A model generated the notes under the pieces. That model ran no database searches, was not told the origin of the DNA, and was given only the letters and a program-made list of their open reading frames with translations. DNA of 54,771 nucleotides from Parcubacteria group bacterium (GTDB lineage: Bacteria; Patescibacteriota; Minisyncoccia; Phycocordibacterales; CSBR16-119), in NCBI GenBank assembly GCA_943356745.1, contig CALRFT010000005.1, positions 1 to 54,771 on the forward strand, in the 5' to 3' direction. Position 1 is the stretch's first letter; every line of letters starts with the position of its first letter. Below are positions 43,127 through 45,292 of this stretch, in pieces. Position numbers and translations under genes: made by a program.

Positions 43127-43185
43127 ATACAAAATTTCCCTCTTTCCGACCAGAGCCACAAAAAATCCCCTTGTGAGGGGATTTT
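43127..43185 (-). repeat. 59-nt direct repeat, left copy (terminator hairpin + promoter-proximal segment)
   Basis: ATACAAAATTTCCCTCTTTCCGACCAGAGCCACAAAAAATCCCCT-TGTG-AGGGGATTTT. 45 + 10 nt are identical to 45234..45292; only the 4-nt loop differs. Confidence 0.9.
43156..43185 (-). terminator. intrinsic terminator after the repeat-protein gene
   Basis: Minus-sense AAAAUCCCCU-CACA-AGGGGAUUUU followed by UUGUGG. Confidence 0.7.
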
Positions 43186-43188
43186 AAT

Positions 43189-44214
43189 TTAAGCTGCCAA
43201 AATTTCTTGGCATTTTTCGTTGAGAACAGACTGAATTGAAGAAGGTTGACTTTTAAGAGTTTGTGTCTTTACAAAAACAGAAAACCAGTCCGGTATATGT
43301 TCTTTTGAAACAAGAGAAATCAACTCCATCATCCGAATTTCGATTTGTTTTTCAAGATAAGATCCATCCGTTGAATCTTCAAATCGTTTTTGTAAGATTT
43401 GATAGTTGGTCTCATCTTCATTCAACTTCATCATTCGAATTTCGATTTGTTTTGAAATGTCGGAATCAGAATGTGTGTTGTCTAGTCGTTCTTGTAAGAT
43501 TTGATAGTTGGTCTCATCTTCATTCAACTCCATCATTCGAATTTCGATTTGTTTTGAAATGTCGGAATCAGAAGATGTCTTATATAGTCGTTTTTGTAAG
43601 ATTTGATAGTTGGTCTCTGTCTTATTCAACTCGATCATTCGAATTTCGATTTTTTTTGCAAGATAAGATCCATCCGTTGAATCTACCCACCGTTCTTGTA
43701 AGATTTGATAGTTGGTCTCTGTCTTATTCAACTCGATCATTCGAATTTCGATTTGTTCTCTAAGGTCTGAACCCAAAGCTGTGTTGTCTAGTCGTTCTTG
43801 TAAGATTTGATAGTCAACAATCTTCGGGAGTTGTTCCTTATTCAACTCCATCATTCGAATTTCGATTTGTTTTTCAAGGTCGGAATCAGAAGATATGTTG
43901 TCTAGTCGTTCTTGTAAGATTTGGTAGTTAGCAATCTTCGGAAGTTCTTCCTTATTCAACTCGATCATTCGAATTTCGATTTGTTTTTCAAGGTCTGAAC
44001 CAGAAGGTGCGTCGCATAGTCGCTCTTGTAAGATTTGATAGTTAATCTCTGTCTTATTCAACTCGATCATTCGAATTTCGATTTGTTCTCTAAGGCCTGA
44101 ACCCAAAGGTGCCTTGTCTAATCGTTCTTGTAAGATTTGATAGTTAATCTCTTCTGAAATAGGTAAATTTTTGATACCTAAAAAAGATTTAATCTGTTTT
44201 TCTAAAGTGCTCAT
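43189..44214 (-). CDS. tandem-repeat protein: 8 x 34/38-aa helical repeats with a hypervariable loop
   Basis: Repeats have the form NYQILQ(E/K)R(L/W/F)-xxxxxx-S(D/G/Y)(L/I)xxQIEIRM(I/M)ELN-linker. No family recognised. Own TTGACA-16-TAATGT promoter at 44242..44269. Confidence 0.75.
   Translation of the reverse strand: MSTLEKQIKSFLGIKNLPISEEINYQILQERLDKAPLGSGLREQIEIRMIELNKTEINYQILQERLCDAPSGSDLEKQIEIRMIELNKEELPKIANYQILQERLDNISSDSDLEKQIEIRMMELNKEQLPKIVDYQILQERLDNTALGSDLREQIEIRMIELNKTETNYQILQERWVDSTDGSYLAKKIEIRMIELNKTETNYQILQKRLYKTSSDSDISKQIEIRMMELNEDETNYQILQERLDNTHSDSDISKQIEIRMMKLNEDETNYQILQKRFEDSTDGSYLEKQIEIRMMELISLVSKEHIPDWFSVFVKTQTLKSQPSSIQSVLNEKCQEILAA
43318..44145 (-). repeat. in-frame 102/114-bp tandem DNA repeats (8 units)
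   Basis: Repeated strings such as TCGAATTTCGATTTGTTT... / CGTTCTTGTAAGATTTGATAGTT are visible every 102-114 nt. Confidence 0.85.
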
Positions 44215-44280
44215 TTTATTGTATTATTTATGTTTTGTTTTACATTACACTAATTATCAAACATGTCAATGTTATAAGAG

Positions 44281-44319
44281 TCACAAAAAATCCCCTTGTG
44301 AGGGGATTTTTTGTGGCTC
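44281..44319 (-). terminator. intrinsic terminator after the SET-fusion gene (third copy of the hairpin)
   Basis: CACAAAAAATCCCCT-TGTG-AGGGGATTTTTTGTG. Confidence 0.8.
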
Positions 44320-44329
44320 TTTTTTGTTT

Positions 44330-45223
44330 TTATATATCTTCAGTTAATTTTTTTATATATCCATTTTTCTTCATTTCATCAAATAAAATCCAATCCGCCG
44401 TATAGTCAATATATTTTTTCTTAAATTCTGAAGGAAGATCCCTCCAGGGTAAAATCTTACCTAAACATTGTTGAGACCCACATAAACAAACACCTTCAGG
44501 ATTTTTCCAATCTGAATTACAAAACAAACTATAACAATATGTTAACTCTTCACCTGGGTGTATGTCTCTTAAGGTTGTGACAAAAAATAAATCTTTAACA
44601 TAACAATTGGGTTCACAAGAATGATTGAGTTTAACTGCATTTGTATTAAATCCATTTCTATAGAAATATTTATGAAAAGGAACGGCATGATCAGCTGCGT
44701 AAATGAATACCTGAGATTCTTTTTCTGCGAAATGAATTTGTCCATCAACATAAGAAATCTGGGTTTCTGCAGGAATAAAATCTTTTGCAAAAACACCAGA
44801 ACCTTTTTCGTCTGTTGTTAATATTTCAACTCTATTATCTTCTTGATATGTTAAAGGATCCGGTATTTCATGATATGAGAAATTTTTCATATCAAATTCT
44901 TTTATTACAAAATCTATAGCTTGCTTTGTGTCAAATTGTTTGCATGAGTAAATATCTACTGTTGCAAAATTTGAATTAGTCCAAACATAAGTACTCACAC
45001 CTGACTCTGCCCACACTAAAGTACCTTCAAATCCATCATGCAATGGGACGCTTTTTCCAGTGGCACTTGATATAAAAGGTCCCGCAATAATCGTCATTTC
45101 CAATTCTTGAGATAGTCTTCTCAAAAAAGAATCAACAAAATCTTCTGATTTTATTTCCTTTTGAAATAAACCTTCGATAATTAAACGTTTTCTGAAAATA
45201 TTTTTTGCTAAATTCGAATTCAT
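44330..45223 (-). CDS. fusion protein: AdoMetDC (SpeH/SpeD)-like N-terminal domain + SET + post-SET lysine methyltransferase domain
   Basis: N-terminus ...GFEGTLVWAESGVSTYVWTNSNFATVDIYSCKQ... follows the pyruvoyl AdoMetDC core pattern. C-terminus has GSGVFA, NHSCEPNC, ELTYCY and CLCGSQQC. ATG at 45223 (MNSNL) has TATGAT 7 nt upstream. Alternative ATG at 45235. Confidence 0.78.
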   Translation of the reverse strand: MNSNLAKNIFRKRLIIEGLFQKEIKSEDFVDSFLRRLSQELEMTIIAGPFISSATGKSVPLHDGFEGTLVWAESGVSTYVWTNSNFATVDIYSCKQFDTKQAIDFVIKEFDMKNFSYHEIPDPLTYQEDNRVEILTTDEKGSGVFAKDFIPAETQISYVDGQIHFAEKESQVFIYAADHAVPFHKYFYRNGFNTNAVKLNHSCEPNCYVKDLFFVTTLRDIHPGEELTYCYSLFCNSDWKNPEGVCLCGSQQCLGKILPWRDLPSEFKKKYIDYTADWILFDEMKKNGYIKKLTEDI

Positions 45224-45233
45224 GTAGTTAATC

Positions 45234-45292
45234 ATACAAAATTTCCCTCTTTCCGACCAGAGCCACAAAAAATCCCCTCACGAGGGGATTTT
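45234..45292 (-). repeat. 59-nt direct repeat, right copy
   Basis: Same sequence as 43127..43185 except the loop is CACG rather than TGTG. Confidence 0.9.

Follow-up and report, generated by a model that had tools for sequence, protein, structure and literature searches.

What might a single polypeptide do that joins the fold of S-adenosylmethionine decarboxylase (AdoMetDC) to a SET methyltransferase domain? The question is raised by a minus-strand gene in a 54,771-nucleotide stretch of Parcubacteria group bacterium DNA (contig CALRFT010000005.1; the window hereafter means this whole stretch), in which an original prediction, made from the DNA letters alone, had recognised such a fusion by its motifs. 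In prokaryotes, SET proteins almost always receive the annotation protein-lysine methyltransferase, and discussion of them centres on chromatin or the manipulation of hosts. The analysis presented here establishes a genuine fusion gene, conserved in ultra-small bacteria, the Parcubacteria of the candidate phyla radiation (CPR). To judge from its sequence, the N-terminal half of the product is neither a canonical S-adenosylmethionine (SAM) decarboxylase nor a one-off decayed domain, and its SET half belongs to a clade with several decarboxylase partners; the protein is tentatively interpreted as a two-step enzyme whose target would be one free amino acid or amine and not chromatin.

The fusion is encoded by a single uninterrupted minus-strand open reading frame (ORF), 44330–45235, giving 301 aa plus stop from an ATG at 45235 that has an AGAGGG ribosome-binding motif 9 nt upstream; public gene calls place the start four codons downstream, at 45223 (297 aa, MNSNLAK...), and residue numbers follow this 297-aa form. 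The longest frame, 44330–45268, opens with a TTG that is an unlikely start because it lies inside a hairpin. The motifs KGSGVFA, NHSCEPNC, ELTYCY, CLCGSQQC and GFEGTLVWAESGVSTYVWTNSNFATVDIYSCKQ are all found in the translation, and both halves score well above their Pfam cut-offs: PF02675 (AdoMet_dc) at 52.6 bits (cut-off 25; E 6.5e-14; residues 25–124) and PF00856 (SET) at 51.5 bits (cut-off 22.4; E 1.5e-13; residues 145–235). A structural model, one of the checks put forward with the original prediction, was obtained with AlphaFold2 from 55 homologues (pLDDT 91.5, pTM 0.79), and Foldseek matched both folds within it. The features of the gene are as follows.

44330..45235, minus strand: whole fusion coding sequence (ORF listing; 56 homologous clusters with equal architecture)
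44861..45202, minus strand: AdoMetDC-fold domain, residues 8–121, of the His-to-Tyr subfamily (PF02675, Foldseek, subfamily alignments)
45002..45007, minus strand: E73-S74, counterpart of the self-cleavage/pyruvoyl-precursor dipeptide (alignment and model)
44987..44989, minus strand: Y79, at the position of Thermotoga maritima His68 (alignment)
44939..44944, minus strand: C94-K95, the Cys being the counterpart of catalytic Cys83 and the Lys subfamily-specific (alignment)
44528..44833, minus strand: SET core, residues 131–232 (PF00856, invariant columns, Foldseek and PDB profile matches)
44606–44626, minus strand: NHSCEPN pseudoknot motif, within the SET core
44531–44533, minus strand: Tyr231, at the catalytic position, within the SET core
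44462..44527, minus strand: post-SET region, residues 233–254, with the clade-specific S-D-W and the C246/C248/C253 cluster (conserved columns)
44333..44461, minus strand: helical C-terminal tail, residues 255–297, LPWRDLP...KY..YTADW... (conservation and model)

A search of 5.8 billion proteins recovered 56 clusters (90% identity), from independent NCBI, JGI, ENA and Logan assemblies, in which the two Pfam domains lie in one continuous, uninterrupted chain; all named carriers are Parcubacteria (Nomurabacteria, Moraniibacteria and Pacebacteria). Because at least 55 protein clusters from independent assemblies carry the same architecture, the fusion is not an assembly artefact. The merging of two ORFs, a concern raised with the original prediction, can be discarded, as can a frameshift, an assembly error or a chance likeness of motifs: in view of the 56 clusters, two domains matched at E ~1e-13 and a confident single-chain model, any explanation of this kind is scarcely conceivable. 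Literature searches returned no paper on the AdoMetDC-fold/SET architecture, the novelty of which had been suspected from the outset, nor any on the subfamily to which its N-terminal domain belongs; homologues are deposited under generic names, as ‘SET domain-containing protein-lysine N-methyltransferase’ (NCBI) or ‘S-adenosylmethionine decarboxylase’ (JGI). The two folds and the proteins themselves are already known, and what appears undescribed in the searchable literature is the architecture, the subfamily and the recurrent coupling of decarboxylases to SET domains.

The N-terminal domain was compared with AdoMetDC references from Aquifex (2iii) and Thermotoga (1tlu, 1vr7 and 1tmi) in pairwise HMMER alignments, where WAE-S74-G-VST-Y79-VW...C94 of the fusion aligns on ISE-S63-H-LTI-H68-TW...C83 of T. 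maritima. The pairs E73-S74/E62-S63, G75/H64, Y79/H68 and C94/C83 bear out the earlier observation that the Glu-Ser dipeptide and the Cys are retained and the His residues replaced by Gly and Tyr; a counterpart of E11 is also present. Foldseek superposes the model on T. maritima AdoMetDC (1tlu/1vr7) at E ~9e-8, with a TM-score of 0.77–0.79 and a root-mean-square deviation of 2.1 Å over 114 columns. In the model E73-S74 lies in a beta-turn between strands 64–71 and 74–81, as in the T. maritima proenzyme. Cys94 is found in 54 of the 55 fusion homologues. The likeness to class 1b AdoMetDC/SpeD (TM0655; PDB 1tlu/1vr7/1tmi) thus extends to the fold, the beta-turn Glu-Ser site, the Cys and the N-terminal-strand Glu; it differs in that HTWPE has become Y-x-W-x-x, in an extra invariant RxR and a Lys after the Cys, and in the lack of polyamine genes nearby.

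These departures from SpeD are shared with a large set of free-standing proteins. An exhaustive profile search of 1.84 billion protein representatives returned many standalone relatives of 112–131 aa, which match the N-domain part only (E 1e-24 to 1e-36), and about a dozen more divergent fusions besides. The signature of this Tyr-type subfamily is R-x-R-L-I-I-E near the N-terminus, followed by W-x-(E/T/S)-S-G-x-x-x-Y-x-W...T/S-x-D-I-Y-S/T-C-K-x-F, with the RxR, Tyr and Lys invariant in the subfamily and absent from SpeD. Scanning one genome per GTDB species with a query alignment of 7 sequences gave 307 confirmed relatives, in CPR, DPANN, Bathyarchaeia, Acidimicrobiia, Chromatiales and cultured Actinoplanes. 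The pyruvoyl-precursor Ser is present in 63/63 standalone genomic copies and 18/18 representatives; across the same 63 copies the following Gly is kept in 62, the Tyr at the H68 position in 61 (the remaining two have His), and the Cys and the next Lys in 62 each, while the position before the Ser is variable (E 29, T 19, S 10, N 4). Such a combination, of a fixed Ser with a variable residue in front of it, looks like a serinolysis site, and the pattern fits a still-functional, possibly pyruvoyl-forming site, built unlike that of canonical SpeD. The proposal that the N-terminal half is a non-processing SAM-binding module is accordingly not established and becomes one possibility among others, the Ser being near-invariant in the subfamily and the window protein keeping Ser, Gly, Tyr, Cys and Lys. 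No NCBIfam model covers the standalone proteins, which score 26–33 bits on the SpeD equivalog TIGR03330. One 319-aa protein (P0068) carries Tyr-type N domains in tandem, the first copy without the E-S site.

The surroundings of the standalone genes point away from polyamines. In Bathyarchaeia, the gene for MfnB (4-HFC-P synthase) directly adjoins the standalone N-domain gene at five loci, and the clusters (L024, L026, L028, L031, L032, L036, L037, L039, L040, L042, L049 and L078) also hold two ATP-grasp ligases and amino-acid-kinase-like, hydantoinase-like, HisA/F-like and homocitrate-synthase-like genes. This looks like a methanofuran-type cluster, in which a tyrosine decarboxylase is expected, and the standalone protein is a possible pyruvoyl substitute for MfnA, the pyridoxal 5'-phosphate (PLP)-dependent tyrosine decarboxylase. 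At 21 loci from Saccharibacteria, Acidimicrobiia, Binatia and others (e.g. L048 8343–9185), a protein of ~280 aa is encoded beside the standalone gene, 0–4 nt 3' of it in most cases and overlapping or up to ~80 nt off in a few. Its only Pfam match, to Acetyltransf_5/GNAT, falls below the cut-off (20.3 vs 22.4 bits); the pair could represent a decarboxylase passing its amine product to a modifying enzyme. Genes for a membrane sensor protein of ~720 aa and for a response regulator often lie near these 21 loci.

Within the fusions, the same residues are either kept or lost together. The window protein is one of 43 of the 55 homologues that keep all 15 residues invariant in the standalone proteins, and the Ser-Gly...Cys-Lys set is retained in 43/43 clusters of its clade. 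A sister clade of 11 (Moraniibacteria/Pacebacteria-like) has S74 replaced by N or H, G75 by Q or E and K95 by S, all together, and one further sequence is aberrant (43 + 11 + 1 = 55). Mean pairwise identity is nearly equal for the N domain and the SET domain inside each clade (0.62 vs 0.63 in the Ser-keeping clade, 0.67 vs 0.68 in the sister clade), and between the clades it is 0.38 for the N domain and 0.57 for SET. By this within-clade measure, selection on the N domain is as strong as that on the SET domain. Read in this way, Ser, Gly and Lys may form one functional unit, maintained in the clade of the window protein and abandoned once, with the N domain of the sister clade perhaps kept for another role, in binding or structure, after the loss.

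In the SET half, the catalytic hallmarks and the post-SET Cys cluster, as originally reported, are intact and conserved across the 55 homologues: N200, H201, S202, C203, P205 and N206 are invariant, as are C246, C248 and C253, which with C203 of NHSC are predicted to form a Zn site. Neither the catalytic Tyr nor the SAM pocket has been lost, since G141 and G143 of the GxG motif (KGSGVFA) and Y231, the ELTYCY tyrosine that aligns with the catalytic Tyr of MLL1, are each conserved in at least 90% of sequences; the module thus looks to have a complete catalytic residue set and competence for SAM-dependent methyl transfer. By fold, the model matches the SET domains of NSD1, NSD2, ASH1L and MLL1 (Foldseek E ~1e-9) and BurB (E 1.8e-8, TM-score 0.65). 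The likeness to KMT2 (MLL), NSD and ASH1L, the best matches in sequence and fold, covers GxG, NHSCxPN, ELxxxY and the post-SET Zn-cysteine cluster. The prokaryotic clade differs in having no eukaryotic SET-C insertions and no AWS, chromatin-reader or WRAD-binding parts, in its own S-D-W and helical tail with an invariant Trp (W278, whichever the fusion partner), and in having metabolic enzymes as partners.

Those partners provide the main clue to what the SET domain may act upon. Membership of the clade, taken as a match to a profile that includes the conserved tail (hallmarks: NHSCxPN, catalytic Tyr, S-D-W, CxCx4C and a Y..S/A.W tail), takes in SET domains standing alone (150–200 aa), in tandem, with a Tyr-type N domain, or with an AdoMetDC-fold domain bearing the full canonical S/H/C triad (P0066 and P0079), and in P0075 the fusion partner is a class I methyltransferase. 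It is also found at the C-terminus of PLP-dependent Orn/Lys/Arg decarboxylases (OKR_DC) in six proteins of ~880–950 aa (P0101, P0139, P0148, P0162, P0165 and P0189), a seventh protein of this type (P0193, 980 aa) giving sub-cut-off matches only. These proteins (loci L086, L087 and L142–L144) run from the PLP decarboxylase through a ~300-aa middle domain without family assignment to SET, and the S-x-H-K PLP-lysine motif was found in P0101 and in P0162 (MEM0985905.1, from a Pseudomonadota metagenome-assembled genome, MAG). This SET clade has thus been coupled, on several independent occasions, to decarboxylase modules of two unrelated folds. Its fusion partners are decarboxylases and a methyltransferase and do not include protein-interaction domains. 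The repeated fusion to decarboxylases suggests methylation of a free amino acid or amine and not of chromatin, and the chromatin- or host-protein link first considered for the window protein finds no support in a SET clade repeatedly fused to amino-acid decarboxylases.

Two archaeal loci show the same modules in other arrangements. A Woesearchaeota MAG (CAZFLO010000017.1; L007, 949–1857) has SET followed by the Tyr-type N domain in one frame, the domains being split by a single TAG (1435–1437) at the position of the conserved tail Tyr codon; the TAG might be a site of read-through, or else the result of a nonsense mutation or a sequencing error. Another archaeal MAG (L061) has separate genes, with 3 nt between a standalone N-domain gene and the SET gene that comes after it. 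Larger combinations were also noted: N domain, SET and a second SET in P0005 and P0006 (465–467 aa), SET–SET in P0077, and eight stretches matching the SET profile in the 1449-aa P0064, for which Pfam counts five. The middle domain of the OKR_DC–SET proteins has no Pfam matches and no PDB sequence matches, its Foldseek list being dominated by SET; a GNAT-like assignment, from secondary-structure order and an R-G-G loop, is tentative. Shorter ‘middle domain + SET’ proteins are more numerous (P0083–P0088, P0076, P0095 and P0110), and a homologous protein of ~300 aa (39% identity) neighbours the OKR_DC–SET gene in L086 and L142. Homology of the ~280-aa neighbour of the standalone genes to the middle domain was considered and is unsupported (hmmsearch empty, hhalign probability 3%). 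An anti-phage defence role, prompted by faint Peptidase_U49 and weak TerB matches near OKR_DC–SET genes, was dropped, as PADLOC gave no match for the window protein, the OKR_DC–SET proteins, their neighbours or the standalone N domain. A phage origin of the fusion was likewise rejected, a scan of viral contigs having given matches to SET alone (residues ~107–290) and no fusion. In IMG/VR, 52 viral contigs (L090–L141), several of them longer than 300 kb, encode clade-related SET domains, with an AdoMetDC-fold fusion in 0/52.

A precedent for such a pairing is found in Burkholderia thailandensis and Streptomyces mobaraensis. In their dimethylsulfoniopropionate (DMSP) methylation pathway, the SET enzyme BurB (MSMT) converts free methionine into S-methylmethionine, which is then decarboxylated by BurI (SMMDC) (PMC7496086, PMC12542666). 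By analogy, the fusion protein may likewise unite a prokaryotic SET enzyme and a decarboxylase on one free amino acid. BurB shares with the clade a short SET-C, the post-SET CxCx4C and the next ‘(D/E)LP’ segment, and it is the top PDB sequence match for the C-terminal half of clade member P0070 and second by fold for P0084. It differs in having no S-D-W motif, the window SET is no closer to it than to KMT2/NSD, and in a comparison of the N-terminal half of SET the top places go to NSD enzymes, with BurB not among the matches listed. On this account a resemblance of R70-x-H72-T73 in BurB to the R-D-H-A motif of the clade was set aside. BurB and BurI are, moreover, separate proteins whose genes cluster with a transaminase and a dehydrogenase, whereas the modules in the window form one polypeptide without such neighbours. 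That the AdoMetDC fold readily changes substrate is known from the arginine and ornithine decarboxylases SpeDA and SpeDC, which are common in CPR and DPANN (PMC10407285).

In the two-step reading tentatively preferred here, the N module would be a working decarboxylase with a substrate other than SAM, Ser74 probably giving rise to a pyruvoyl group by cleavage between E73 and S74. Tyr79 and Lys95 might stand in for the missing processing His, and a His-independent pyruvoyl formation through these two residues is purely conjectural. The SET module would methylate the same small molecule before or after decarboxylation, in an order analogous to that of BurB and then BurI on methionine. Candidate chemistries are the conversion of methionine by way of S-methylmethionine into DMSP-amine, or that of an aromatic or basic amino acid into its amine and then into an N-methylated amine; a diamine, with its Lys-like aminoalkyl chain, would be well accommodated by a SET pocket of the KMT2/NSD type. 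For the sister clade, from which the Ser, the Gly and the Lys have gone, no more than a binding or structural function of the N module would be left. A bolder version, in which the chain houses a complete sulfonium or ammonium pathway built on a new pyruvoyl enzyme class, the SET product (e.g. S-methylmethionine) being decarboxylated by an N domain self-processed through a Tyr/Lys pair instead of the canonical His, is unlikely; decarboxylation of S-methylmethionine would, in chemical terms, come closest to the ancestral decarboxylation of SAM.

Several observations weigh against the two-step reading. Self-processing is stated to require the His equivalent to T. maritima H68, which every characterised SpeD, SpeDA and SpeDC enzyme conserves (PMC10407285), and this residue is Tyr in 54/55 fusions; Ser74, present in 43/55, is Asn, His or Ala in 12/55, and the divergent fusions P0062, P0065, P0072 and P0073 have lost the Ser and/or the Cys, so that the SET partner can evidently do without pyruvoyl catalysis. 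The window SET is closer in sequence to KMT2A than to BurB (7.6e-6 vs 1.3e-3), as is the clade profile (KMT2A 5e-19, NSD/ASH1L ~1e-15, BurB 1.5e-13). No aminotransferase, aldehyde dehydrogenase, speE or transporter gene is conserved beside the fusion in the eight neighbourhoods compared, and the methanofuran-cluster argument is itself inferential. Much of this suits a different explanation, which is possible though doubtful: a protein-lysine methyltransferase in which the AdoMetDC-fold part is a catalytically inactive pseudoenzyme, serving as a ligand sensor (for SAM, decarboxylated SAM (dcSAM), S-adenosylhomocysteine, a polyamine or an amino acid), for dimerisation or for substrate docking. 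The missing His, the closest relationship of the SET domain to KMT2, NSD and ASH1L with their post-SET Zn cluster, and a gene standing alone amid housekeeping genes would be expected from it, and the pTM of 0.79 suggests, at the level of the model, a fixed arrangement of the two domains. The loss of Ser, Gly and Lys in a whole clade and of Ser or Cys in divergent fusions, with the domain still strongly conserved, indicates that a pyruvoyl-independent role exists at least there. Regulatory relatives of this sort are known: the trypanosomatid prozyme, a dead AdoMetDC paralogue with a regulatory role (PMC5201418, PMC6221367), would offer a model for such a pseudoenzyme and for the Ser-less sister clade, its fold being kept non-catalytically, and differs in activating a bona fide AdoMetDC, the window domain having a SET methyltransferase as partner and its Ser and Cys still present.

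SpeD1–SpeD2 fusions (Desulfotignum, Omnitrophica and Victivallis; Michael laboratory) similarly join an AdoMetDC-fold domain to an enzyme of a related pathway, some keeping one domain without key residues as a non-catalytic part, as in the degraded SpeDC domain of V. vadensis; there the partner is a second AdoMetDC-fold decarboxylase and not SET, and the Michael-laboratory paper reports only SpeD–SpeD fusions, without a SET or methyltransferase fusion, the word ‘methyltransferase’ occurring once and outside any fusion context. Against a pseudoenzyme, the retention of Ser-Gly...Cys-Lys in 43/43 clusters and its near-invariance in the 63 standalone copies are hard to explain by binding alone, the SET clade is fused to decarboxylases that look competent (PLP Lys motif or S/H/C triad), and a protein substrate common to CPR, DPANN and Pseudomonadota would have to be near-universal, with gene context suggesting none. 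A third explanation, that of a genuine SAM decarboxylase making dcSAM for polyamines, fused to a methyltransferase to co-regulate two SAM-consuming activities, is highly improbable. It would account for the above-cut-off AdoMet_dc match, the retained Glu-Ser, Cys and E11 counterpart, and the JGI name, but the fusion reaches only 40.1 bits on TIGR03330 (cut-off 75.65), has H68 and HTWPE replaced and belongs to a subfamily with its own invariant RxR, Tyr and Lys, the standalone members of which lie in non-polyamine contexts. No speE-like/aminopropyltransferase or other polyamine gene was found near the fusion in the eight neighbourhoods, nor speE or an aminopropyltransferase near any homologue examined. 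SpeDA and SpeDC are recognised by conserved S63, H68 and C83 and by clustering with speY, speB, speE, hss or CASDH/CASDC (PMC10407285); the fusion has Tyr at the H68 position and no polyamine genes nearby.

Across the eight neighbourhoods no operon or neighbour of the fusion gene is conserved, and a BurD/BurE-like transaminase/oxidase or aldehyde dehydrogenase was absent beside the window gene, seven fusion homologues and three OKR_DC–SET genes. The closest relative (78% identity) has the order GDH–fusion–AlaRS, more distant relatives lie in unrelated contexts, and in the window a repeat-protein gene stands between the fusion gene and alaS (43189–44214, minus strand; 341 aa, eight ~37-aa repeats of the form NYQILQERL...EKQIEIRMIELNK, no Pfam family). 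With a hairpin copy on either side and no counterpart at the syntenic locus of the 78%-identical relative, this gene looks like a recent insertion; the idea that its product is a partner or substrate of the fusion was abandoned, given its absence from that locus and from all other contexts. The hairpins concerned are as follows.

44276..44321, strand not assigned: hairpin with a 20-bp stem, then a T-run on the plus strand; terminator-like, directly past the fusion stop codon
45258..45303, strand not assigned: second hairpin copy, between the GDH stop codon and the fusion-gene start

A third copy lies at 43150–43190. The window contains these three near-identical copies of the perfect hairpin (core CACAAAAAATCCCCT-loop-AGGGGATTTTTTGTG, stems up to 20 bp) and no more, where none would be expected by chance; one follows the GDH gene, one the fusion gene and one the repeat-protein gene. 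It resembles a common terminator or a repetitive extragenic palindromic (REP)-like element, and the fusion gene, flanked by two perfect copies, looks like its own, monocistronic transcription unit.

The implications reach beyond this one locus. A large uncurated branch of the AdoMetDC fold is exposed, in which the His thought essential for pyruvoyl formation is absent and the Ser strictly kept, and self-processing by Tyr-type proteins, if it occurs, would call for a fresh look at how serinolysis works in this fold. Should the domain instead prove a pseudoenzyme, it would be a new case of a metabolic enzyme domain that has lost its activity and been co-opted to regulate a methyltransferase. If the sulfonium or ammonium reading were true, CPR bacteria of groundwater would be an unsuspected source of sulfonium or quaternary-amine compounds, and the standalone Tyr-type subfamily (CPR, DPANN, Bathyarchaeia, Acidimicrobiia and Actinoplanes) would constitute new pyruvoyl amino-acid decarboxylases, including a candidate replacement for MfnA in methanofuran biosynthesis. 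CPR metabolism is minimal, and a conserved bifunctional SAM-using enzyme of ~300 aa is a concrete and easily expressed target. More broadly, the coupling of decarboxylases to SET domains suggests that BurB-like small-molecule SET chemistry is far wider than the single characterised case.

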